DNA from: an uncultured Acidobacteriota bacterium
GTDB taxonomy: Bacteria; Acidobacteriota; Vicinamibacteria; Vicinamibacterales; UBA8438
DNA length: 64,000 nt
Assembly (NCBI GenBank): GCA_913043225.1
Contig: CAJWLU010000016.1
Location: 1-64,000, forward strand
Direction of reading: 5' to 3'
Shown: piece after piece, positions 283 to 48,852 of the stretch
How the letters are laid out: the number at the start of each line of letters is the position of its first letter
How positions within the stretch are numbered: position 1 is the first letter of the stretch
Position numbers and translations under genes: made by a program
The notes under the pieces: generated by a model
Seen by the model: only the letters and a program-made list of their open reading frames with translations
Told to the model about the DNA's origin: nothing
The model's database searches: none

Positions 283-345
283 CCCAGCACAACCCGTGCT
301 GATTGGCCGTCGGTCGATTGATGTTGTTGAGGACGAGATTTACGG
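283..345 (+). repeat. 63-bp inverted repeat, left copy
   Basis: CCCAGCACAACCCGTGCTGATTGGCCGTCGGTCGATTGATGTTGTTGAGGACGAGATTTACGG; 59/63 identical to the reverse complement of 2193-2255. Confidence 0.92.
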
Positions 346-374
346 GTTACCGCGGGCGCCCCGCGCACCGCCCT

Positions 375-423
375 TATGTAACCTTTACTTCCCTTATTTG
401 AAATGGTAAGTTTACGTTACATA
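375..423. promoter_or_regulatory. Imperfect inverted repeat, candidate operator of the downstream XRE regulator
   Basis: TATGTAACCTTTACTTCCC ... GGTAAGTTTACGTTACATA (15/19 complementary) in AT-rich DNA upstream of the two-gene unit. Confidence 0.5.
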
Positions 424-538
424 TCTGCGGGAGATGGAGAACAGCCCATCACCCACGAGGAACTCCAGCGCGGGATCAAGAGGGTCGGCGACTTGGTCAC
501 ACTTGTAAGAAAAGAACTGGCAACGACAGGAGCAAAGT

Positions 539-928
539 ATGAGTGAGTTAATTCCAGTTTTAGGCATCTTGGCTGGAATCATTATTACGATAGGGGTATT
601 TATCTGGCTGTATTACGAAAGCACGAGCAAAAGAGAAACCATTCTTGAGATAGCTAAACACCTAGACGATCCTTCCAAAGTGGAGAAGTTAATAGGTGTT
701 TTTGAAGAGAGAAAAAAAGATCCGATAGATTATCGAAGAGGAGGAACAATTACGCTTTTTGTTGGCATTGGCATTTATCTTCTTGGTTTTACTGCGCTAG
801 GACCTCTCTTTGAAGGCGTTGGACTTTTAGTTGGCACCATAGGTGTAGGTACTATGGTTGCTGGATACCTCTATCCAAATACCAGTGAAGAATTAACTAA
901 TGCTGTTGAGAAATTTGAAGAGAAATAA
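539..928 (+). CDS. Small membrane protein, DUF6249-like
   Basis: RBS AGGAG, three hydrophobic segments, AT-rich codon usage unlike host genes. Confidence 0.75.
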   Translation: MSELIPVLGILAGIIITIGVFIWLYYESTSKRETILEIAKHLDDPSKVEKLIGVFEERKKDPIDYRRGGTITLFVGIGIYLLGFTALGPLFEGVGLLVGTIGVGTMVAGYLYPNTSEELTNAVEKFEEK

Positions 929-931
929 CAA

Positions 932-1144
932 GTGGGTAAAAACCACAAAAAGCTTATAAACAATCTAAGAGAACTCAGGAGATCTGCCGGTTTAACTCAA
1001 CAAGAACTTTCTGAGATTGCCGATGTTTCAAGAAAGAGCATCAATGCAATTGAAAATGGCATCTATGTTCCTTCCACCGTCCTCTCACTAAAGATCGCAG
1101 AAACTCTTAATTGCTCCGTCGAAGATCTATTTCAATTGCCGTGA
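932..1144 (+). CDS. XRE/Cro-CI family HTH transcriptional regulator
   Basis: NNLRELR..GLTQQELS....VSRKSINAIENG.YVPS..LSLKIA..L...VEDLF signature. Confidence 0.92.
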   Translation: MGKNHKKLINNLRELRRSAGLTQQELSEIADVSRKSINAIENGIYVPSTVLSLKIAETLNCSVEDLFQLP

Positions 1145-1222
1145 AGTTCTCGTCTACACCAACTGTCCCCACACAAAAACCTGACGCCTCGCCCGCGAGT
1201 GGGACGAGGCGAATCCGCGTAG

Positions 1223-2026
1223 ATGATGATTACGGAGGGTCAGCACGACGTGTTCCGAGCGCGGGGACTACTTCGTTTGGAACGTTTTCTGCCAGCCGAT
1301 GAGGTGGTTCGAGCACGGGACGTGGTGATACGTGCTCTCGGGCGGCATGGTTGCGTACAACGAGACGGCGAGTGGGACCTTACGGGGCTGGACCAGTTGC
1401 TCCAGCGCAAGGTGAGTTCAACGTTAGGGCGGGGCGTTGGACTCTCCCCCAAGTTGATCCCCGCGGAACTGCTCGACACTATCCAGACCCTTGCTGGGGA
1501 TGCCTGCGTTCCCATGAATCCGAGTCGTCGTTTGAAGCCGTCGCTACTGTTTTCTGTGCCCAATAGCAAGGCCTGGGCCGTGCCACACAATGGGTGGCAC
1601 GTAGATTTGCCGAAGCTACGAAACCGGGGGATGCCTCCGGGTGTCCAGCTGTTCGCGTTGTTGGATGCCGTGCGTCCCGGAGGGGGCGGCACGGTCGTCG
1701 TGGCGGGTTCGCATCGACTTCTGGACGGTATGCCATTCTTGGGTCCGTCCATGAATCATGCGAAACGTCTTCGCAGACTACCGTTTTTTGCTGATTTGAT
1801 GTGCGAGGAGTTCTCCAAGCGTGCCGGTCTCATGAGTAAGTCTCACCGTGAAGGCGATGTGGACCTGCAAGTGGTCGAATTGCACGGCGGACCGGGTGAC
1901 GTCTTCTTGGTGGATATGCGCGTGCTGCATACGGTGGCTCCGAATGCTTCGCGTGCGCCAAGAATGATGTTTACGGAGCGGTTTGTGAGCGAAGATGTTC
2001 TCGAGGAGATGTTCTCGAGGAAATGA
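1223..2026 (+). CDS. Phytanoyl-CoA dioxygenase (PhyH) family Fe(II)/2OG oxygenase
   Basis: HxD in GWHVD, GGT.VV.GSH, G.PGDV, distal His in VLHTVAPN, then R..M. Confidence 0.85.
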   Translation: MMITEGQHDVFRARGLLRLERFLPADEVVRARDVVIRALGRHGCVQRDGEWDLTGLDQLLQRKVSSTLGRGVGLSPKLIPAELLDTIQTLAGDACVPMNPSRRLKPSLLFSVPNSKAWAVPHNGWHVDLPKLRNRGMPPGVQLFALLDAVRPGGGGTVVVAGSHRLLDGMPFLGPSMNHAKRLRRLPFFADLMCEEFSKRAGLMSKSHREGDVDLQVVELHGGPGDVFLVDMRVLHTVAPNASRAPRMMFTERFVSEDVLEEMFSRK

Positions 2027-2039
2027 TGCTTGCGTCCGG

Positions 2040-2192
2040 GTAAAGGCCGCGGCCATTATCGGCTGCGCGATCATTGTGGCCGTCGCGATGTAGCTCTATT
2101 TCAATCCGTATCAGAGCTGCGTGCGCTGGCATCAGGGTGAAGGGTTCGACGGCGCAGTAGCAGCAAGGCTCTGCCTGCACGGGCCGGGTTAA
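2040..2192 (+). pseudogene. Degraded small membrane-protein gene
   Basis: Frame reads VKAAAIIGCAIIVAVAM*LYFNPYQSCVRWHQGEGFDGAVAARLCLHGPG*; internal TAG at 2091, no start codon, TAA 2190-2192 abuts the right inverted repeat. Confidence 0.45.
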
Positions 2193-2255
2193 CCGTAAAT
2201 CTCGTCCTCAACAACACCAACCGACCGACGGCCAGTCAGCACGGGTTGTGCCGGG
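2193..2255 (-). repeat. 63-bp inverted repeat, right copy
   Basis: Reverse complement matches 283-345 with four transitions. Confidence 0.92.
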
Positions 2256-8437: not shown

Positions 8438-9577
8438 ATGAATACTGTGACTCAGCCCACGCCAGACAAGCCGAAACGGCGAGTCAAATACGTGCGCAAG
8501 CTGGACCAAATCGAACAGCTCACGCCTGAGCAGCGTGATCGTCTCGGACCTGTAGCTGCGCGCTATGTCTTTCGCGCCAACGACTACTATCTCGGCCTAA
8601 TCGATTGGGACGACCCGGAAGACCCGATCAAGCAACTGATCATCCCGCGCGAAGAAGAGCTGTCCGAGTGGGGAGAGCTTGACGCCAGCAACGAACAGTC
8701 GGTCACCGTCGCGCACGGTGTCCAGCACAAGTACACGGACACAGTGCTGCTGCTCTGCAACGAAGTCTGTGGCGCCTACTGCCGCTACTGCTTCCGCAAG
8801 CGGCTGTTCATGGACGAGAACGACGAGGTCACCAACGACGTTTCGGCCGGGTTGGCCTATATCGCCGACCACCCGGAGGTGACCAACGTGCTGCTCACCG
8901 GGGGCGACCCGCTGCTAATGAGCACGCGCCGGCTGGTAGAAATCTTCGACGCGCTCCGCCAAATTCCGCACGTCAAGATCATCCGGCTCGGATCCAAGAT
9001 GCCGGCGTTCGATCCTTTCCGGTTGCTGAACGACGAGGAGCTACAAGCTGCCTTCCGGAAGTACTCAACGCCCGAGCAGCGCATCTATCTGATGGCGCAC
9101 TTCGACCATCCGCGCGAACTCACCCCCGAGGCCATAGCTGGGATCGACACCTGCATTCGCAACGGCATCATCTGCGTCAATCAGTGCCCGCTCATCAAGG
9201 GGATCAACGACGATCCCCACGTGCTGGCCGAGATGTACTCGACGCTGTCCTACACCGGATGCCCGCCCTACTACCTGTTCCAGGGGCGACCGACGGCTGG
9301 CAACGAACCGTATGAGATCCCGATTGTCGAGGGCTGGCACATCTTCCAACAGGCGCTGAAGATGGGCTCAGGCCTGGCGCGCCGCGCCAAGTACTGCATG
9401 TCGCACGAGACCGGTAAAGTCGAGATCCTGGGTGTCGACGCCGACCACTTGTATCTGCGGTATCACCAAGCTAAGTTTGACGAGGATCTCAGCCGATTCT
9501 TCGTCGCCCGGCGAGACGACAGCGCCTACTGGCTTGACCAGCTAACAGTTCTCGACACCGTTCCCGACCACGTCTGA
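8438..9577 (+). CDS. KamA-family radical SAM/PLP aminomutase, substrate uncertain
   Basis: HKY, CGAYCRYCFRKR (CxxxCxxC), VLLTGGDPL, HFDHPRE, NQ.PL..GIND, C-terminal GK. Confidence 0.92.
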   Translation: MNTVTQPTPDKPKRRVKYVRKLDQIEQLTPEQRDRLGPVAARYVFRANDYYLGLIDWDDPEDPIKQLIIPREEELSEWGELDASNEQSVTVAHGVQHKYTDTVLLLCNEVCGAYCRYCFRKRLFMDENDEVTNDVSAGLAYIADHPEVTNVLLTGGDPLLMSTRRLVEIFDALRQIPHVKIIRLGSKMPAFDPFRLLNDEELQAAFRKYSTPEQRIYLMAHFDHPRELTPEAIAGIDTCIRNGIICVNQCPLIKGINDDPHVLAEMYSTLSYTGCPPYYLFQGRPTAGNEPYEIPIVEGWHIFQQALKMGSGLARRAKYCMSHETGKVEILGVDADHLYLRYHQAKFDEDLSRFFVARRDDSAYWLDQLTVLDTVPDHV

Positions 9578-9592
9578 CACACCCCTGGGGGC

Positions 9593-10363
9593 ATGATCGA
9601 GCTCCGAGGATTGAGTAAGCGGTACGGCAACCGCCTCGCAGTCGCCGAGCTCTCGCTCGAAGTGGCCAAGGGCGAGCTTCTCGTCCTGCTCGGCGGCTCG
9701 GGCAGCGGCAAGACCACCACCCTGAAGATGATCAACCGGCTGATCGAGCCAACCAGCGGCTCGGTTCGGCTGGACGGCGATGACGTCGCCGCGCTTACCC
9801 CCTCCGACCTGCGGCGCCGGATCGGCTACGCCTTCCAGCAGGTCGGGTTGTTCCCGCATCTCTCCGTGTCTGAGAACATCGGGGTCACGCCGTCGCTGCT
9901 CGGCTGGTCGCCGGACCAGATCCGAGAGCGGGTCGACACGCTACTCAGGCTGGTCGAGCTCGACCCGGACGAGATGCGTGACCGGCGCCCCGACGAACTC
10001 TCGGGCGGGCAGCAACAACGGGCGGGCGTTGCCCGTGCACTGGCGGCCCGGCCACGGGTGATGCTGCTCGACGAGCCGTTCGGCGCCCTCGACCCACTAA
10101 CGCGCCAGCGGCTGCAGGATTCGTTCATCCGGATCCGGCGAGAACTGGGAGTGACGGCGGTATTCGTCACGCACGACATGACCGAGGCGCTGCTGCTGGG
10201 CGATCGGATCGCCGTGCTCTCGGAGGGCCGGATGGTGCAGATCGGCGCACCGGCCGAGCTGATGCGCGCCCCGGCCAACGACTATGTGCGCCAGCTGCTC
10301 GACACCCCCCGGCGCGAGGCGGCGCTCGTCGACTCGCTACTGTCGACGGAAGACACGGCATGA
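9593..10363 (+). CDS. Osmoprotectant-type ABC transporter ATPase (OpuA/ProV/EgtV-like)
   Basis: GSGKTTTLKMINRLIEPTSG, LSGGQQQR, LLDEPFGALDP. Confidence 0.93.
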   Translation: MIELRGLSKRYGNRLAVAELSLEVAKGELLVLLGGSGSGKTTTLKMINRLIEPTSGSVRLDGDDVAALTPSDLRRRIGYAFQQVGLFPHLSVSENIGVTPSLLGWSPDQIRERVDTLLRLVELDPDEMRDRRPDELSGGQQQRAGVARALAARPRVMLLDEPFGALDPLTRQRLQDSFIRIRRELGVTAVFVTHDMTEALLLGDRIAVLSEGRMVQIGAPAELMRAPANDYVRQLLDTPRREAALVDSLLSTEDTA

Positions 10364-10429
10364 GTTACGGCCGCACCCGATTGCAAGGTAGTCGTACGGG
10401 AGCCGGGGGTTGGGGCGGAGCTTCATGAC

Positions 10430-11947
10430 ATGAATGAACAGCTGGCCCTGCTCCCGGCCTATCTCACGGCGCATCTGCAGCTAACGCTGCTGGCGCTGGC
10501 CGCCAGCGCCGCCGTCAGCCTGCCGCTCGGTATCGCCGCCACACGGGTCCGCTGGCTCGAACAACCAGCGCTGGCCATCGCCGCCGTCATCCAGACCATT
10601 CCGAGCTTGGCGTTGCTGGCGGTGATGGTGCCGATTCTGGCAACCCTGCAGCTGCAAAGTATCGGCTTCCTGCCCGCATTCATCGGCCTGTCGCTCTACG
10701 GCATTCTGCCAATACTGCGGAACACGGTGACCGGTATCGCCGGGGTCGACCCCGCTCTGAAGGAGGCAGCCCGCGGCGTGGGGATGACGCCCGCCCAACA
10801 GCTGCGCCAGATCGAGCTGCCGCTGGCCATGCCGACCATCGTGGCCGGCCTCCGTACCGCGACGGTCTGGACCGTAGGCATGGCGACTCTATCGACACCG
10901 GTAGGAGCCACCAGTCTCGGCAACTACATCTTCACCGGGTTACAGACAAGGAACTTCGCGGCCGTGCTTGTGGGCTGCGTTGCGTCGGCGGTGCTCGCAC
11001 TGCTGCTCGACGCCCTTGTGCGCTCGCTCGAGGTGGGGGTGCGGGATCGTCGTCCCCGTCTCGTGAAGGTCGCGGCGGCGGTCACCGCGGCACTCTACCT
11101 CTATACCGTCGGCAGTCTGGCCGGATCGCTTGTCGGCGGGGGCGACCGTCCAATATCGATCGGAGCCAAGGGCTTCACCGAGCAGTACGTGCTGGCCGAG
11201 CTACTCACGCAGTGGATCGAGCAGGAAACGGGTCAGCCCACCGCCCAACGGCAATCGCTCGGTTCGATCGTGGCGTTCAACGCCCTCGCAGCCGGCGACG
11301 TCGATGTCTACGTGGACTACTCGGGCACCGTGTGGGCTAATGTGATGGGACAGACGGGCATCGGGAGCCGCGCCGAGGTCAGGTCGGCGGTGGCGCAATA
11401 CCTCGACGAGACCCACGGCATCCAGATCGCCGCCACGCTCGGCTTCGAAAACGCCTACTCGGTGGCGATGCGCAACGAGGATGCCGACCGCCTGGGAATC
11501 GCGCGGATCAGCGATCTGCCACCCCTAGGTCTCACCCTGTCGATGGGCGGCGACCTCGAGTTCTTCTCCCGACCGGAATGGACGGCCATCGAGGAGGTGT
11601 ACGGCCTGAGACTGGCCGAGGAGCGGACGATGGACGCCGGCCTGATGTATCAGGCAGCCGCCGAGGGTGCCGTCGACCTGATTAGCGCTTACACCACCGA
11701 TGGACGGATCACGGCCTACGGCCTCCGTGTGCTCGACGACGATCGAGGAGCTATTCCCCCCTACGACGCGCTGGTGATGGTCAGCGACCGCCTGGTCGAA
11801 GAGCGGCCGGACGTGGTCGAGGCGCTCGGGCGTCTCGACGGCCGCATCGACGTCGAAGCCATGCGACAGATGAACCTCGCGGTCGACGAAGGCGGTGAGA
11901 ATCCGGCCACCGTCGCCACCGAGTTCCTGCGGAGCCTTGCGCGGTAA
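10430..11947 (+). CDS. Fused ABC permease + quaternary-amine substrate-binding domain (OpuBC/EgtU-like)
   Basis: QTIPSLALL, EAARGVGM, then IGAKGFTEQ, YVDYSGT, GFENAY, PPYDA. Confidence 0.92.
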   Translation: MNEQLALLPAYLTAHLQLTLLALAASAAVSLPLGIAATRVRWLEQPALAIAAVIQTIPSLALLAVMVPILATLQLQSIGFLPAFIGLSLYGILPILRNTVTGIAGVDPALKEAARGVGMTPAQQLRQIELPLAMPTIVAGLRTATVWTVGMATLSTPVGATSLGNYIFTGLQTRNFAAVLVGCVASAVLALLLDALVRSLEVGVRDRRPRLVKVAAAVTAALYLYTVGSLAGSLVGGGDRPISIGAKGFTEQYVLAELLTQWIEQETGQPTAQRQSLGSIVAFNALAAGDVDVYVDYSGTVWANVMGQTGIGSRAEVRSAVAQYLDETHGIQIAATLGFENAYSVAMRNEDADRLGIARISDLPPLGLTLSMGGDLEFFSRPEWTAIEEVYGLRLAEERTMDAGLMYQAAAEGAVDLISAYTTDGRITAYGLRVLDDDRGAIPPYDALVMVSDRLVEERPDVVEALGRLDGRIDVEAMRQMNLAVDEGGENPATVATEFLRSLAR

Positions 11948-11956
11948 GATCGGCCC

Positions 11957-12505
11957 ATGGGCATTCTTGACATGCTGGGACTGACGGACGACAGCGATGG
12001 CGCTCCCTCGCACGGCTCCAGCCACGGCGACACCGACACTGTGCGGCGCATCGCGGGCGAGCTGGACGCGCTCGAACCGGACCGGGCGAGGTTTCTAGCT
12101 GCCTTCGCGTATGTCCTAAGCCGGGTGGCACACGCCGACTCGGAGGTCTGTGTGCACGAGACCGAGACGATGAAGGAGATCGTGCAGAAGCTGGGACACG
12201 TCCCGGAAGCCCAGGCGCTGCTCGTGGTCGAGATCGCCAAGAACCAGGCGCGGCTCTTCGGTGGGACCGAGAACTACCTAGTCACTCGGGAATTCCGCGA
12301 GATCGCCACCGCCGAGCAGCGGTTGGAACTGCTCGACTGTATCTTTGGGGTGGCCGCTGCTGATGGCTCGATCAGCACGATCGAGGAGTCACAGGCGGGC
12401 CAGATCGCCAAAGAGCTCGGCTTTACCCAGCCCGAGTATTCGGCTGCACTTGCGGCTCACGGGGAGCATCGGGCGGTGCTGCAGCTGCTGCGGTCGAAGC
12501 AGTAG
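11957..12505 (+). CDS. TerB-family protein
   Basis: RVAHAD...E and VAAADG.I...EE repeats typical of the TerB fold. Confidence 0.8.
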   Translation: MGILDMLGLTDDSDGAPSHGSSHGDTDTVRRIAGELDALEPDRARFLAAFAYVLSRVAHADSEVCVHETETMKEIVQKLGHVPEAQALLVVEIAKNQARLFGGTENYLVTREFREIATAEQRLELLDCIFGVAAADGSISTIEESQAGQIAKELGFTQPEYSAALAAHGEHRAVLQLLRSKQ

Positions 12506-13619
12506 CTACCTCGGGTTCTTCGTCCTCGTCCGACGTTTCGTAGGCCGACGGATTGCCGTCCAACATGACAGCCAGCCAGCGCAGGTCCTCGGTGTTCTCG
12601 AGTGCGATCTTCAGCATCATCGTCAGCGGCACCGCCAGCAACATCCCCACCGGCCCCCAGACCCAGCCCCAGAAGACCAGGGACAGCAGGATCACGAGCA
12701 CCGACAGGCCGAGGCGTCGTCCGAGCAGCATCGGCTCGACCAGGTTTCCAAAGATGACGTTGATGCCCAGGTAGCCGGCGGCTACCAGAAGCGCGTGCCC
12801 CACTCCGAACTGCACAGTCGCCAGTAGCACCGGTCCAACCGCGGCGAAGATCGACCCCAGATTCGGGATGTAGTTGAAGAGGAACGCGATCAACCCCCAC
12901 ATCAGAGGGAAGTCGAGCCCCAGCGCCCACACCCAGATGCCGGCCAGCAGACCGGTACTCAGGCTCACCACCGTCTTGATGGCGAGATAGCGTTGAATCT
13001 GACGAGTCATCTGACTAAAGCGCTGCATGCCGCGGCTGCGCTCGCCGAACGCGACCCGCAGCTTGGCCCGGAAGCCGGCCGCCTCGAACAGCATGAAGAT
13101 GACCACGAGGAACACGAGAAAGGCATTCGACAGTAGCCCAGCCAGTGCCCCCAGGATGCCGTTCAAAAGGTCGACCATCGCCTGCGGATTGATGTAGTCG
13201 AGCGGCGTCCACTGGGTAGCGGGCAGGCCCATGCTCTCGGCCCAGGCGAGCGCGTCGCGCAACAGCCCCTGGAGCCGAGCCTGATAGCTGGGCGCCACGT
13301 CGGCAAACTCGCTCACCGACTGCCCCACCACAGCGCCGAAGATGCTGACCACGCCGGCGGCCGCGCTCACCGTCGACAGTACGGCCAGCGCGGTAGGCAC
13401 CCGGCGGTTCTGGAGCCAGAGCATGATCGGCAGGCTCACCATGGCGAGGAACACCGCCACGAGGAACGGCAGCAGGATCTGGTCAGCTTCCCGAAGCCCG
13501 GCCACCACGATGATGAAGGCGGCCGCCAACAACAGGAACCGTGCGCCTCGGTCCTGGCGTAGCGACTCGACCGACCCCTGACGCACTCCGAGATACGCCC
13601 GATCGCGCCTCTCGCTCAT
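12423..13619 (-). CDS. AI-2E family transporter
   Basis: Polytopic; NYIPNLGS, NLVEP, WGWVWGPVGMLLAVP; ATG 13619 with RBS GGGGAG. Confidence 0.92.
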   Translation of the reverse strand: MSERRDRAYLGVRQGSVESLRQDRGARFLLLAAAFIIVVAGLREADQILLPFLVAVFLAMVSLPIMLWLQNRRVPTALAVLSTVSAAAGVVSIFGAVVGQSVSEFADVAPSYQARLQGLLRDALAWAESMGLPATQWTPLDYINPQAMVDLLNGILGALAGLLSNAFLVFLVVIFMLFEAAGFRAKLRVAFGERSRGMQRFSQMTRQIQRYLAIKTVVSLSTGLLAGIWVWALGLDFPLMWGLIAFLFNYIPNLGSIFAAVGPVLLATVQFGVGHALLVAAGYLGINVIFGNLVEPMLLGRRLGLSVLVILLSLVFWGWVWGPVGMLLAVPLTMMLKIALENTEDLRWLAVMLDGNPSAYETSDEDEEPEVATASTAAAAAPPDAPREPQVQPNTRAG

Positions 13620-13635
13620 GTCGTGCTCCCCCTGT

Positions 13636-14607
13636 CTACCACACCTCGAACACCGTGGTAGCGAACCGCGCCGCCGGCTCGACCCACTGATCCCGCACGC
13701 CGAATCCGGCCAGCTCGCCCATCTGGACAATAGCCTCCATCTTGTATTTATACGAGCTTTCGGTCCAGATCGACTCGCCGGCGGAGAACTGGACACGCAG
13801 GTTGGCGCCGGCGACGGTGACCGTCTGCGCGTCGAGGCTCTCGAGATGCATCTCCACGCGAGACGCCCCGGAATTCCAGACCGCCCGATGCGCGAACTGG
13901 TTGAGGTCGAAGTCGGCGCCCAGCTCGAGATTCAGCCGGACCAGCAGGTTCTTGTTGAACGCCGCGGTCACGCCGAGTGGATCGTCATAGGCGAGGACAA
14001 GCTCGGGCTCCGGCTTGACCAGATCAGCTCCAAGCAGGAGCCGGTCGCCCGGCTGCAGCACCGCACGCACGCTGCGCAGGAACCCAACGGCGGCATCCGG
14101 CTCCAGGTTGCCGATGTTGGATCCGAGGAACGCGACAAGGAGGCCGCCGCAAGGCTCCCGCGATCGTGCCACTTCGGCCAACCCCTCCTGGTAAGTAGAC
14201 TCGTGGAGCGACACCGTCAACCCATCGAAACGCGACAAGGTGCGCCTGGCCATCTGAAGCGCGGTGACCGATACGTCGACCAACTCGATCCCTAACAAAC
14301 GGCCGGACGACACCCAGGGCTCGACCACCAGCGCCAGTTTCTCTCCGCTTCCGCAACCCAGCTCCACCACCGTGGTGGGCGGCTCAAGCCCAGCCAGAAT
14401 CTGCCTGGCATGCTGGGACAGGAGCTGGCATTCGGCCCGCGTGATCCGGTACTCGGGCAGCGCGCAGATCGCCTCGAAGAGCTTCGAGCCGAGCGCGTCG
14501 TACAGGTAATGCGGCTGCAGACGCTTAGGGCTTCCGCCGAGATCTCGGCGAACCTCGTCGACCAGACGCGCCTGACCGGTTAGCTCGATCCCACTGGTGG
14601 GCTCCAT
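13636..14607 (-). CDS. egtD: L-histidine N-alpha-trimethyltransferase
   Basis: YD..GS.LFEAI..LPEY..TR.E, VELGCGSGEK, GSNIGN, AYDD..GVTAAFN, EMHL, TESSYK. Confidence 0.92.
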   Translation of the reverse strand: MEPTSGIELTGQARLVDEVRRDLGGSPKRLQPHYLYDALGSKLFEAICALPEYRITRAECQLLSQHARQILAGLEPPTTVVELGCGSGEKLALVVEPWVSSGRLLGIELVDVSVTALQMARRTLSRFDGLTVSLHESTYQEGLAEVARSREPCGGLLVAFLGSNIGNLEPDAAVGFLRSVRAVLQPGDRLLLGADLVKPEPELVLAYDDPLGVTAAFNKNLLVRLNLELGADFDLNQFAHRAVWNSGASRVEMHLESLDAQTVTVAGANLRVQFSAGESIWTESSYKYKMEAIVQMGELAGFGVRDQWVEPAARFATTVFEVW

Positions 14608-14623
14608 ATTGGGTGGTGTGGGG

Positions 14624-15961
14624 CTATCCCTGCACGCAACGGAAACAAGCGTAGACGTATGGATAGTGTGGACGGAACCAGTTGCGGAAGCTCCGTCTGA
14701 GCAACCCGGGCGCCGTCACCGGCGATCCGCCCTTGATGACATAGTGCAGGCCGTCAAAGAAGTCGGCCGAATACTCCGGGTAGGACGGCATCGGCGAGAA
14801 GCCAGGGAAACCGTCAAACACGGTAGAGCTCCACTCCCACCCGTTACCCACCAGGTCGTGCACGCCCCAGGCACTGACACCGTCGGGGAACGAACCGACC
14901 GGCACCGGTTCCCAGTAGCGGAACCCGAAGTTGCCATGCCGGCTGGGGTCGGGGGCGTCCTCGCCCCACGGGTAGCTGCGCTCAGCTCCCTCGGGCGTGC
15001 CGTAGGCGGCCCGATGGAACTCAGCCTCGGTCGGCAGTCGCTGGCCCCGCCAGCGCGCGAAAGCCGATGCTTCGGCATGGGTGACATACACCGGCCAGGC
15101 GGCAGGCAGCGGAATCAGGTCGAACATGCTCCGCCAGTGCCAACGTCCATCCTCGCGCACCCAGAACGGCGGATGCTCGATCCCTCCGGCCGCGCACCAG
15201 GCCCAGTCGCTGTCGGACCACCAGCGGCTGTCCCCATAGCCACCTGCGTCGACAAACGCCTGATACTCCTGATTGGTGACATTGTGAACGTCGATGGCGA
15301 AAGCCGGCACGTCAACCACGTGAATCGGAAACTCGTTATCCCAGCCGAACGGAACCTCTTCGAGCGCCGCCCCTAGCGTGGCCCTTCCCGGCGCGACCTC
15401 GATCTGGCGAGCTGGCGGGACCACCCCCTCTGTGACGAGCGGCGCACCAGCTGGTCGGCATTTTCGGTCGAGCGACAACCGGTGCCACATGTAGGCCAGC
15501 GTCTCCTGGTGCAACTCTTCGTGCTCAATGAGCGTGTGCACCGCTTGACCGCGGTGCAGCACCGGATGGCCCGGCTGCTCGACGGGCGCCTTCGCCAGCG
15601 CGTCGAGGATCAGCTGGTCGGCCGCCTCGACGTACTCCTGCACGGCATCACGGGTCGGCCAGGCATGGATCGCCACGTCGTCGGCCGAACGCTGGTCCTC
15701 GGGATCGATGCCGCGGGCAAACAGTAGCTCGAGGCCCTCGTCGATTCCGGGGCGGCCCAAACCACATTTGATCAGCGTGTTCACGCTGAAGGCGGGGATA
15801 TGCCCTTCGTAGAACACTACCGGGTGGCGAAGCGAAATCGGTCGCTCATAGTAGGCCTCTGGGCTCAGCAGACGAAACAGCTCGGCCGTGCGCTCTCGGG
15901 TCGCCAGAAACCAGGCGATGCACGCCTCACGATCGACCACGGCGGTCGGTGCGGAGTCCAT
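14624..15961 (-). CDS. egtB: Non-heme iron sulfoxide synthase (EgtB/OvoA family)
   Basis: DinB-like domain with FYEGH and HEELHQE (HX3HXE), FGE-sulfatase domain (FGWDNE, RLPTEAE, GNGWEW), adjacent to egtD; start uncertain (15961-16039). Confidence 0.85.
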   Translation of the reverse strand: MDSAPTAVVDREACIAWFLATRERTAELFRLLSPEAYYERPISLRHPVVFYEGHIPAFSVNTLIKCGLGRPGIDEGLELLFARGIDPEDQRSADDVAIHAWPTRDAVQEYVEAADQLILDALAKAPVEQPGHPVLHRGQAVHTLIEHEELHQETLAYMWHRLSLDRKCRPAGAPLVTEGVVPPARQIEVAPGRATLGAALEEVPFGWDNEFPIHVVDVPAFAIDVHNVTNQEYQAFVDAGGYGDSRWWSDSDWAWCAAGGIEHPPFWVREDGRWHWRSMFDLIPLPAAWPVYVTHAEASAFARWRGQRLPTEAEFHRAAYGTPEGAERSYPWGEDAPDPSRHGNFGFRYWEPVPVGSFPDGVSAWGVHDLVGNGWEWSSTVFDGFPGFSPMPSYPEYSADFFDGLHYVIKGGSPVTAPGLLRRSFRNWFRPHYPYVYACFRCVQG

Positions 15962-16042
15962 ATGTCCCAACACTAACATAGGGATTTCTCGGTCCCCACG
16001 CCCTCCCACACCAGTGTGGTAGCCTGAACTCGAGGCCATTTG

Positions 16043-16128
16043 GCGAAAGTGGCGGAACTGGCAGACGCGCTGGATTTAGGATCCAGTGGCCCTAGGCCGT
16101 GGGGGTTCAAATCCCCCCTTTCGCACCA
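16043..16128 (+). tRNA. tRNA-Leu(TAG)
   Basis: GCGAAAG/CTTTCGC acceptor stem + ACCA, anticodon arm CTGGA-TTTAGGA-TCCAG, long variable arm. Confidence 0.96.
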
Positions 16129-16167
16129 CACCACTCACATTTTGTTCCACGCAACCGATTGACATAT

Positions 16168-17466
16168 ATGAAGACGGAGCTCACGTCGCTGAGTGAGACG
16201 CGAAAGCGGCTCGACATCGAGATTCCCGCGGCCGAAGTGGACCAGGCGATTGACCGTCTGGCCAAGCAACTGACCAAGCGTGCCAAGGTGCCTGGATTCC
16301 GACCGAGGAAGGTACCGGTTAGCGTAGTACGACAGCGATTCATGTCGGACATCCTGCATGACGTCTCGCACGACCTGGTGCCCCCCGCCGTCGATACGGC
16401 TCTACGAGATCATGAGATGGTTCCGGTCGAGACGCCAGACGTGCACGAGATCTCGATCGACGCCGGGCAGCCACTGACATTCCACGCGCTCTTCGAGGTA
16501 ATGCCTGCGCTCGAGGATCTCGACTACGAGGCGCTCACACTTCGGCGCACGCCGGTGGAATTGGACGCCGCGGCAGCCGAACGCGCCCTCGAGGAACTGC
16601 GGCGCCGGGCCAGTAAGCTGGAACCGGTGACCGACCGAGCGGTCAAGGGCGAGGACGTGGTCACGCTGGACCTCACCAGGAAGGGAGTCGCTGGGCCGGA
16701 CGGCCCTCCCGAGACGCCGCCAGAGGAGCGGCATGAGGGAGTGAGCATCGAGCTCGGAACGCCAGCCAACCCACCGGGTTTCGACGATGAGCTAGTGGGT
16801 TTGGAGCCGGGCGACACGAAATCGTTCGAGCTCACCTATCCCGCCGACCACGAGCCGAAGGACCTGGCGGGCACAACGGTGGCCTACGACGTCGAGGTCA
16901 AGGCCATTCACCGGCGAGAGCTGCCAGAGCTTGACGACGCATTCGCTACCTCAATCGGAGAGTTCGAATCGCTGGAGGCGCTGAAAGAGCGAATCGCGAG
17001 CGACCTCGAGCGGGAAGCGAAGGCGGAATCAGACCGGGAAGTGCGCCGCGACCTGCTGTCGCAGCTGGCGTCCCGGGTCACGGTGGAGATGCCCGAAGCG
17101 CTGGTCAACCGGGAGATTGGACGGCGACTCGAACAGATCGCGAGCCGTCTCGCGCAACAGCAGGTCGACCCGACGAAGGCCAACATCGATTGGGAGACGC
17201 TAAAGGAAGAGCAACGTGCCCCGGCGCTCGAGACGGTACGGGGCTCGATGGTTCTCGACGAGGTGGTGAAACGCGAATCGCTCAGCGTGAAATCGGACGA
17301 GGTCGACGAGGAGGTTACCAAATACGCCGAGCGTCTTGGACAGACCCCGGCCGCGGTTCGGGCTCAATTGGAGAAAGAGGATGGGATCGCGCGACTGGCG
17401 GAAGGACTGCTGCGGAAGCAGGCAGTCGAGTTTCTTCTGTCGCGTGCTACGATCGTGTCCGCGTAA
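16168..17466 (+). CDS. tig: Trigger factor
   Basis: VPGFRP.KVP ribosome-binding motif, FKBP-like domain, position before clpP. Confidence 0.95.
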   Translation: MKTELTSLSETRKRLDIEIPAAEVDQAIDRLAKQLTKRAKVPGFRPRKVPVSVVRQRFMSDILHDVSHDLVPPAVDTALRDHEMVPVETPDVHEISIDAGQPLTFHALFEVMPALEDLDYEALTLRRTPVELDAAAAERALEELRRRASKLEPVTDRAVKGEDVVTLDLTRKGVAGPDGPPETPPEERHEGVSIELGTPANPPGFDDELVGLEPGDTKSFELTYPADHEPKDLAGTTVAYDVEVKAIHRRELPELDDAFATSIGEFESLEALKERIASDLEREAKAESDREVRRDLLSQLASRVTVEMPEALVNREIGRRLEQIASRLAQQQVDPTKANIDWETLKEEQRAPALETVRGSMVLDEVVKRESLSVKSDEVDEEVTKYAERLGQTPAAVRAQLEKEDGIARLAEGLLRKQAVEFLLSRATIVSA

Positions 17467-17640
17467 GGGTCGCTTTCCTGCCGTCGTCTCAATCCCCAAG
17501 CAGCGTGCTCACCGGTCCCCTGGCACCGCGGTGGTTCGCTCAGGGCCAGACAACGGTGACAGGCAACGACACCCCGGCGTGGGGCGAAGGGGCTAGCTAG
17601 CGCCGCGAGGGGTTTAGGGCGAAGCCCCCTGGTGAGATCA

Positions 17641-18261
17641 ATGACTGACTCCAAGACCGTGCCCACTCCGCGTAACCAACTCATCCCGATGGTGGTCGAG
17701 CAGACCAACAGGGGCGAGCGGGCGTATGACATCTATTCCCGGTTGCTGAAGGACAGCATCATCTTCATTGGTACGCCGATCGAGGATTCCATCGCGAACC
17801 TGGTCATCGCCCAGATGCTGTTTCTGGAGGCCGAGGACCCGGACCGAGACATCGTGCTCTACATCAACAGCCCGGGCGGGTCGATTTCGGCGGGGCTCGC
17901 GATCTACGACACGATGCAGTTCATCAAGCCCGATGTGCAGACCGTCTGTATCGGTCAGGCTGCGTCGATGGCGGCGGTGCTGTTGTCGGCCGGAACTGCC
18001 GGCAAACGGTTCAGCCTGCCAAACTCGCGTGTCGTCATCCACCAGCCGCTGATGAGCGGTCTAGCGGGGCAGGCGACCGACATCGACATCCACGCCAAGG
18101 AGATCCTGCGGATGCGGCAGCGGCTCAACGAAATCCTCGTGTCGCACACCGGACAGAAGCTCAAACGGATCGAAGAGGACACCGAGCGAGACTACATCAT
18201 GGACGCCGAGCAGGGTCGGGAATACGGTATTATTGATGAAGTGATCAGACAGCGCGCCTAG
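17641..18261 (+). CDS. clpP: Clp protease proteolytic subunit
   Basis: [25 protein letters not shown]. Confidence 0.97.
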
Positions 18262-18302
18262 GCGAACGTGGCGTGCCACGCCCGCCAAGGGCACTGTTTA
18301 AC

Positions 18303-19550
18303 ATGGTCAAGAAAAGCGGTGAACCGGAGATTCTGCGCTGTTCGTTCTGTAACAAGGATCAGAACGATGTCCGCAAACTGATCGCCGGTCCGACAGTCTT
18401 CATCTGCGACGAGTGCGTCGAGGTCTGCAACGACATCATCGCGGACGACAACCGGTTCGAGCACCGCGGCTCCAAGTCAAGCCTCCCGGTTCCTCAAGAG
18501 ATCAAGAAGTTCCTGGACGGGTACATTGTCGGCCAGGAGCAAACCAAGAAGAAGCTCTCGGTCGCCGTCTACAACCACTACAAGCGCGTCGAGATCCAGA
18601 AGCAGTCGAGCAACCGCAACGACACCGAGCTCACCAAGGCGAACATTCTCCTGATCGGCCCGACCGGCACTGGCAAGACGCTGATGGCGCAGACGCTGGC
18701 CAGGATGCTGTCGGTGCCGTTCACCATCGTCGATGCGACGACGCTGACCGAAGCCGGCTATGTAGGCGAGGACGTCGAGAACATCGTGCTGAAGCTGCTA
18801 CAGGCCGCCGGTGGCGACATCGAGAAATGCCAGCAGGGCATTATCTACATCGATGAAATCGACAAAATCTGCCGTAAGGACGAGAACCCATCCATTACCC
18901 GGGACGTCTCGGGAGAGGGCGTGCAGCAGGCTTTGCTGAAGATCCTAGAGGGCACGGTAGCCAACGTGCCTCCACAGGGTGGCCGCAAGCACCCGCACCA
19001 GGAGTTCTTCCAGATCGACACGGCCAACGTGCTGTTCATCTGTGGGGGCGCTTTCGTTGGCCTCGAGCAGACGATCCAGCGGCGCACCGGCCGGAGGTCG
19101 CTGGGCTTCGGCGCCGACATTAAGACCGCCGACGAACGGGACCTCGGCTCGACCCTCGAAATGGTCGAGCCGGAGGATCTCATCCGCTACGGCCTCATTC
19201 CGGAGTTCGTCGGACGGCTACCGGTCATCGGCGCCCTGCACGAGCTGGACAAGCCGGCTCTGATGCAGATTCTCACCGAGCCGCGCAACGCCATCACCAA
19301 ACAGTACGAGCGCCTGTTCGAGTACGAGAACGTGAAGCTCCGCTTCACCGAGGACGCACTCGAGGCGATCGCCGAGTCGGCGCTCGAGCGCAAGATCGGG
19401 GCCCGCGGGCTACGCATGATCATCGAGGCTCTGATGCTCGACATCATGTACACGCTGCCAGGTCAGAAGAAAATCAAGGAGTGCGTCATCACCCGGGAAG
19501 TCGTACAGTCGAAGGACGATCCAATCACGGTCATCGAGAAGGCGGGCTAG
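18303..19550 (+). CDS. clpX: Clp protease ATPase subunit
   Basis: CSFC/CDEC zinc finger, [29 protein letters not shown] loop. Confidence 0.98.

Positions 19551-47443: not shown

Positions 47444-48852
<1,409 letters not shown>

Follow-up and report, generated by a model that had tools for sequence, protein, structure and literature searches.

A CIME-like mini-island with conserved ends at tRNA genes of an uncultured Acidobacteriota bacterium and its relatives

The first 64,000 nucleotides of contig CAJWLU010000016.1 from an uncultured Acidobacteriota bacterium (assembly GCA_913043225.1; this whole stretch is the window) begin with a 2.3-kb island at a tRNA-Lys(CTT) gene, which keeps both of its attachment (att) copies and encloses all of its cargo between two inverted repeats (IRs). 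With a probability of about 0.7, this is a non-autonomous mini-island resembling the cis-mobilizable elements (CIMEs) and descended from tRNA-targeting elements of the phage-satellite type, the ends of which are mobilised in trans and the cargo of which is shuffled through shared repeats. Islands with such paired ends, found at five tRNA species in the same bacterial family, look like a lineage-wide gene-swapping system. Labels beginning with G, L and C denote genomes, fetched loci and contigs, respectively, G000 being the host genome.

Results

Conserved ends at several tRNA genes

The conserved part of the island consists of the flanks outside the IRs, the left IR copy being continuous with a conserved 136-bp att flank. 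Its components are as follows.

1-59, + strand: 3′ part of a host tRNA-Arg gene, truncated by the contig start (Rfam tRNA match, 5′ cut)
71-146, + strand: tRNA-Lys(CTT), the target gene, on the attL side (ARAGORN and Rfam)
100-150, + strand: left att copy, which begins at the anticodon stem-loop and forms a 51-nt direct repeat (98%) with 2409-2459
172-194, + strand: terminator-like hairpin of the conserved left end, of putative function (consensus scan)
215-232, + strand: left arm-type repeat pair, two 7-mers 11 bp apart, at +108 from the anticodon core
283-351, − strand: left IR copy, reading towards the left end as the 3′ trailer of a Sel1 gene; adjoins Sel1 stop codons at C9 and in G096
352-374, − strand: degenerate last Sel1 codons joined to the left IR; Sel1-unit homology reaches 364, outer limit set by eye
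2187-2255, + strand: right IR copy, a Sel1 trailer that reads towards the right end
2265-2298, + strand: second stub, Sel1 stop and trailer start, fused to the right end; the motif recurs in relatives
2299-2316, + strand: right arm-type repeat pair, at −117 from the anticodon core
2343-2350 and 2382-2389, + strand: repeated 8-mer boxes in the conserved right end, possible accessory-protein sites
2409-2459, + strand: right att copy, the displaced 3′ half of tRNA-Lys (51-nt direct repeat)

Among 104 genomes of the family, the left end was matched in 13 (seven at E ≤ 2e-4) and the right end in 12, which represent 8 of 18 genera; the right-end match covers the att-proximal part in seven of these 12 genomes, the host included, and only the IR or a Sel1-stop stub in the other five. 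The tRNA genes adjoined by related ends are Lys(CTT), Lys(TTT), Leu(TAA), Phe(GAA) and Pro(GGG), in every case with the cut at the anticodon loop, and the right flanks of the Lys island of the window and the Leu island of C9 differ at 2 of 153 bases. The arm pair is found at −117 to −119 in nine of the ten right ends tested (seven sources) and at +97 to +121 in ten left ends; its sequence varies between elements, with both repeats changing jointly, in an otherwise conserved end. The terminator-like hairpin combines a conserved stem with a variable loop across 13 aligned left ends. In lambda-type att anatomy, integrases bind arm-type sites, and it is on this basis that the repeat pairs may be read as such sites; the left pair is a putative integrase arm site whose motif also appears on integrase-bearing ends.

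What lies between these ends changes from one island to another. A left end 95% identical to that of the window is followed by different cargo at tRNA-Lys(CTT) in L015, and the orthologous tRNA cluster of G096 and G041 (which in L016, a metagenome contig described below, reads Arg(TCG), Arg(CCG), Lys(CTT)) has related left ends that other DNA follows. None of five relatives showed an empty tRNA-Lys site; those with downstream sequence have related left ends or the promoter module. Because the same ends recur with different cargo at this and other tRNA loci, the suggestion of a first-pass annotation of the window that the segment is non-autonomous, serviced in trans and swappable in its cargo fits the data.

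A mutated second full-length tRNA-Lys(CTT) lies elsewhere in the host genome (G000 C6:178708-178783), with tRNA-Pro(GGG) and a cold-shock-like gene some 570 bp upstream and a partial left end plus a Sel1 gene behind it; an entire tRNA gene may occasionally be part of the element. An ARAGORN call of tRNA-Pro(AGG) at 48759-48847 of the window is apparently spurious.

The inverted repeat is the trailer of a Sel1 gene

The IR arms comprise 69 nt (283-351 and 2187-2255), 63 of which are identical (91% complementary; E 3.7e-22 within the genome). The first-pass annotation had described their core, 283-345 and 2193-2255, as matching at 59 of 63 positions with four differences, all transitions, and as lying some 130-150 bp inside the att copies around cargo devoid of a recombinase or transposase. 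These points were reproduced: the arms lie 133 bp (left) and 153 bp (right) inside the 51-bp att copies, and the three open reading frames (ORFs) that they enclose, encoding DUF6249, HTH_3 and PhyH proteins, include no integrase, relaxase, transposase, conjugation, replication or packaging gene. The transition-only differences were dismissed as a signal, since the left flank beside the IR has transition to transversion ratios of 15:5 and 6:1 and the bias is general in these flanks. Neither does its description of the repeats as structured hold, as the DNA folding z-scores of the four IR strands are −0.66, −0.37, +1.37 and +1.09 and compensatory changes affect 0/18 and 0/14 predicted pairs across ten copies; a structured RNA or single-stranded DNA was ruled out on these grounds, the only secondary features being a 6-bp hairpin and weak terminator-like matches (6 found versus 2.6 ± 1.8 expected).

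Five full and three partial IR copies occur in the 3.85-Mb genome, every one in a tRNA-linked island, which is not the distribution of an abundant dispersed repeat. No Rfam family matched the IR (Rfam matches were to tRNAs only), the left end had no match in 72,556 plasmids and the right end none in 50,697 phages, and viral contigs gave no matches to the IR, right-end or trailer patterns.

The origin of the repeat is visible at C9, where both IR copies start at the stop codon that ends a Sel1-repeat gene. The IR is thus the sequence just behind that stop codon and belongs beside the left end. A tRNA-Phe island of about 1.2 kb in G096, made up of a left end, one diverged trailer, one Sel1 gene, a promoter-like module and a right end, is a minimal member of the family, and the Sel1 gene is the probable ancestral cargo. 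Sequences combining the Sel1 stop with the trailer start occur 7, 9, 3, 12 and 7 times in five relatives and not at all in a reversed control. Relatives with the same ends carry the IR sequence once or never; it is absent from the right ends of G001, G007, G014, G041, G043 and G096, and a right-side IR is limited to the lineage of the host species (window, L016, C9, L024) and to G004. Because the trailer adjoins the left end and the right ends of relatives lack it, the right-hand IR looks like a derived, later duplicate.

Signs of past mobility

Right-end/att/left-end junctions, each of which is the product expected of a circle or of tandem attI sites, are present at C9 (Leu), L024 (Lys), L058 of G041 (Leu) and L059 of G001 (Lys). 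In L024 the Lys junction is inverted and lies 1.4 kb inside a Leu island, and C5 has a Pro att fragment with arm repeats inside a Phe island; neither arrangement is explained by simple tandem accretion. Judged by indexed words only, 19 of the 22 sequencing runs listed, from eight studies that are all marine, hold the stretch or part of it, and 11 runs hold at least half of its indexed words.

Sel1 3′-end remnants between cargo genes

A stranger feature, missed by the first-pass annotation, separates two cargo blocks of the island.

1184-1222, + strand: Sel1 3′-end remnant of 39 bp between the HTH and phyH genes; its stop codon abuts the next start codon

In the host genome, 12 of 16 Sel1-end hits, distributed over eight loci, fall within 1.1 kb of a tRNA gene or fragment (4.3% of the genome is within 2 kb of one). 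A census of the host genome and 39 fetched loci found 55 ends and classed 46 as remnants: co-oriented ORFs end at most 100 nt upstream of 25 of these, and a convergent ORF lies at most 100 nt downstream of eight. The remnant pattern gave one hit in a reversed-genome control versus 13. Behind the remnant, relatives often have a putative promoter, a sigma70-like module with a 17-bp spacer (19 instances), and what comes after this module is either a Sel1 start or a foreign gene. The clearest array is the 4.66-kb contig C121 of G041, where co-oriented unrelated genes (SnoaL-like, esterase, small membrane proteins, AhpC) are parted by six remnants, five recognised by pattern and one by eye.

Clustering of the flanking DNA at 65 ends gave 51 upstream and 47 downstream groups. 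One cassette has three different upstream neighbours in four copies, the IR-type trailer has five in nine copies, and two cassettes each have two different downstream neighbours; neighbours have thus been exchanged at the remnant. The 5′ limits of the remnants vary, from about −16 to −110, as would be expected of illegitimate joints.

The remnant was also considered as an attC site or as a hairpin end of the REP (repetitive extragenic palindromic)/IS200 or Helitron type, and rejected, as the hairpin of the window copy is not conserved and the genome has no Y1 or IS110 enzyme. No hairpin is conserved at Sel1 ends (mean z −0.49 and −0.21, n=58), the candidate stem shows no compensatory change, and the attC pattern (cores RYYYAAC ... 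GTTRRRY) occurs in 3 of 61 Sel1 ends and 0 of 4 IR strands. A dif/pdif-like site, sought by its arm motif, gave no convincing match.

By eye, in-frame fusions of the Sel1 start and signal-peptide region with unrelated ORFs, one of them resembling a lytic transglycosylase, are seen at L005/L014 (G004) and G000 C6:133800; capture may also add an export signal.

Cargo of foreign composition

375-426, + strand: putative AT-rich palindromic promoter/operator of the captured DUF6249-HTH unit (palindrome 375-423)
427-533, + strand: later insert that parts this promoter from its ORF; not in the G051 copy
539-928, + strand: DUF6249 membrane protein, foreign (Pfam PF19762; GC content 0.385, GC3, at third codon positions, 0.30)
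932-1144, + strand: HTH_3 (helix-turn-helix, XRE) regulator, foreign (GC 0.399, GC3 0.37)
1223-2026, + strand: PhyH-family dioxygenase (Pfam PF05721; GC 0.58)

For reference, the genome has a GC content of 0.643 and the neighbouring aceE a GC3 of 0.84. The low-GC promoter and DUF6249-HTH unit recurs, at 79% identity, behind a 5S rRNA gene in G051 (L184, C9:701-1371), which belongs to another genus; the stretch immediately ahead of the gene pair there matches positions 377-426 at 86% identity. The 107-bp insert weakly matches the end of a cargo gene of L024 (73% over 60 nt, E 0.005). Taxon names among the best 120 of 5458 hits for the DUF6249 protein are limited to Porticoccaceae (77%). At the 3′ end of phyH, positions 1993-2020 contain a short tandem duplication, of which L016 has one extra 12-bp copy.

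Candidate helpers

Ends bearing a tyrosine integrase of family A have a similar arm pair at +94 to +111 in eight of eight cases, and the integrase lies beside a full tRNA gene, in either orientation, at 13 of 21 loci. On three viral contigs it is accompanied by primase and/or major capsid genes; by this gene content, family A integrases sit on satellites like the phage-inducible chromosomal islands (PICIs). Family B, a second tRNA-targeting integrase family present in 17 of 104 genomes and located next to Sel1 modules in G041, G005, G100 and G007, is an alternative parent, and in G007 an integrase fragment with matching arms adjoins an island of this kind. The three tyrosine recombinases of the host genome are XerD-like, XerC-like and a tmRNA-linked integrase; the last, on C37, was not taken as the helper, as it targets a different kind of core. 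Since neither family was found in the host genome, the island would probably be immobile there until a helper arrives.

Several observations on the recombinases stand on their own. Loci of one integrase family, L064, L085, L100 and L101 versus L086, L087, L088, L089 and L099, place the integrase either upstream of an intact tRNA, supplying promoter and 5′ half, or convergent on it, supplying the 3′ half, and the arm geometry of one arrangement is that of the other rotated by 180 degrees. Tyrosine recombinase matches number 33 in G007 (L065-L079) and 66 in G043; the family-A-like copies of G007 lack an adjacent tRNA gene at 20 of 21 loci, form a separate multicopy group and are possibly a tyrosine-recombinase transposon. 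On C37 of the host (9500-19420), a satellite-like element at tmRNA fragments encodes an integrase, an excisionase-like HTH protein and a probable AAA helicase; a short ORF near it, which we take to resemble terminase small subunits, is followed by the Sel1 promoter module, then a Sel1 5′ stub and a gene of lower GC. By eye, a non-coding repeat is common to islands at the 3′ end of G000 C47, C9:1500-1700 and C37:16300-16600, next to the tmRNA att region. The XerC-like recombinase at C16:57066-57602 is a host gene unrelated to the island.

Discussion

Relation to known systems

CIMEs and microCIMEs are described as decayed integrative elements of 1.2-13 kb that keep attL, attR and cargo and have lost their recombination genes; they occur at tRNA-Lys(CTT), form tandems with internal attI junctions, derive from integrative and conjugative or integrative and mobilizable elements (ICEs/IMEs) and move by accretion and conjugation (PMC7563491, PMC5704250). 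The island similarly retains attL and attR and lacks integrase, relaxase and conjugation genes. It differs in that its likely parents are satellites with primase and capsid genes, in that one end chassis serves five tRNA species, in the junctions inside heterologous islands and in cargo organised by a repeated gene-end linker; as ICEs or IMEs are only possible ancestors, it is likened to CIMEs and not classed outright as one.

With tycheposons, which carry their own integrase and often replication genes, and with PICI-like satellites it shares a marine setting, tRNA targeting, modular cargo and tandem junctions, as well as islands that repeated integration has seeded and in which partial tRNAs abound (10.1101/2020.12.28.424599), but it has no integrase and no replication or packaging module. 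Like integron cassette arrays and attC-site clusters without an integron integrase (CALIN), the islands hold co-oriented single-gene cassettes that are parted by a repeat and shuffled between arrays in the absence of an integrase (PMC11389934); unlike in those, the separator is the end of a protein-coding gene, has a variable 5′ limit and is often followed by its own promoter, with no attC cores, conserved hairpin or IntI. MITEs (miniature inverted-repeat transposable elements) are likewise non-autonomous, bear inverted repeats and need an enzyme in trans (PMC11389934), whereas the island has no target duplication, is not dispersed, and has sub-terminal IRs that continue into att arms and a Sel1 ORF. 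The intact tRNA gene with a 3′ fragment displaced from the anticodon loop matches tDNA islands of the Islander type with an anticodon-centred attP; Islander rejects candidates that lack an integrase ORF and those under 2 kb (PMC4383910), so that mini-islands without an integrase are filtered out. Charybdis elements were considered as relatives and, from the part of their description available, are unrelated. Searches of titles and abstract openings in the open-access literature listed no description of this island family.

Alternative readings of the repeats

Assembly fold-back or chimerism could be suspected from the location of the island at the contig start and from the repeats, which break assembly at several islands. 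It is nevertheless of negligible probability: the island is contained entire, in the same orientation and along with 9.7 kb of upstream sequence, in the independent 166-kb metagenome contig L016, which departs from positions 1-2600 of the window by 11 substitutions and a single 12-bp insertion, and the arms differ at 6/69 bases. A nested MITE-like or composite non-autonomous transposon with the IRs as its ends, one form of the separate nested element proposed at first pass, accords with their inverted orientation and with the lack of coding capacity for mobility, but is highly improbable in view of the missing target duplication around the IRs, the small number of copies and their confinement to tRNA-linked islands, the continuity of the left copy with the att flank and Sel1 ORF, and the empty plasmid, phage and Rfam searches. 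Moreover, the similarity between the two arms does not exceed that between unlinked copies (four differences in the window and six in L016, versus three to seven between each arm and copies elsewhere). An invertible segment allowing phase variation of the cargo, also proposed at first pass, is somewhat less improbable but still doubtful. The 69-bp inverted homology encloses all of the cargo, and one HNH cassette with its IR faces the right end in L024 and the left end in L015, which inversion or translocation via the IR could yield; on the other hand, both available assemblies (2/2) show one orientation, the arms are not homogenised, the IR starts at the Sel1 stop codon, the island encodes no invertase (the single resolvase of the genome is on C55), and the putative promoter of the captured unit lies inside the IRs, so that flipping would change little.

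A more serious rival, although an unlikely one, is a site-specific cassette system that resembles integrons without being one. Satellite-derived mini-islands would then travel from one tRNA gene to another with borrowed integrases, and gain and reshuffle single foreign genes through an unknown recombinase acting at the Sel1 stop, the last Sel1 codons serving as crossover site, a gene plus its remnant as cassette and the Sel1 promoter in the role of the cassette promoter Pc. The array of unrelated genes in G041 and the switching of neighbours at remnants, close to which the cargo stop codons lie, speak for it, as do the clustering of joints by the Sel1 stop codon and the 87-98% conservation of the last nine Sel1 coding bases in 60 copies, a figure inflated by the search anchor. 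Coding constraint, however, likewise stops at the stop codon, and both this constraint and the anchor pattern could produce the cluster of joints. The widely varying 5′ limits, the lack of a conserved hairpin or compensatory change and the scarcity of attC cores favour satellite ends combined with illegitimate recombination, and the enzymes that a cassette system might use are missing from the genome: in addition to the absence of Y1 and IS110 enzymes, its three recombinases score 109, 105 and 67 against the TIGR02249 (IntI) cut-off of 265, the first two with their catalytic domains only.

Several results nonetheless weigh against the CIME-like, satellite-derived origin preferred here. Tandem attI sites can give the same junctions as circles. 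No integrase gene was found attached to ends matching those of the window, three complete integrase attP sites have the distal arm pair at −132 to −142 and not at −117, and families A and B were not found in a host genome that is 96% complete. The remnant census relied on a crude ATG-only ORF rule and on an anchor pattern that itself enforces conservation, and four of the 65 clustered ends were judged by eye to be due to chance. At 25-70 bp and 80-90% identity, the repeats are short substrates for RecA. Finally, random illegitimate recombination does not predict the clustering of joints by the Sel1 stop, where nine high-scoring segment pairs end at −3, and it is for this reason that the site-specific cassette system stays a candidate.

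A possible course of events

Under the satellite-derived model, illegitimate recombination would first have put foreign DNA in place of most of the Sel1 ORF, which brought this DNA under the Sel1 promoter. A visiting satellite or prophage would supply a tyrosine integrase in trans and give rise to circles or tandem junctions, while the IR, the left end and the remnant/promoter linkers would act as short blocks of homology that allow islands to exchange cassettes, and whole circles, with one another. The right-hand IR may have arisen from one such exchange, so that the inverted pair would be a by-product and not a recognition signal.

Implications

tRNA islands without an integrase are usually read as debris, and a standard island finder drops them (PMC4383910). 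Those described here form a family, with ends conserved across several genera and one chassis at five tRNA species, and with cargo of foreign composition whose nearest named relatives belong to another phylum. If the joints prove to be site-specific, the islands would represent a second, independent solution to the task performed by integrons. The linker made of a Sel1 end and a promoter is a concrete, countable marker of the gain and reordering of cargo, so that cargo acquisition by these islands is directly testable by mapping the joints.

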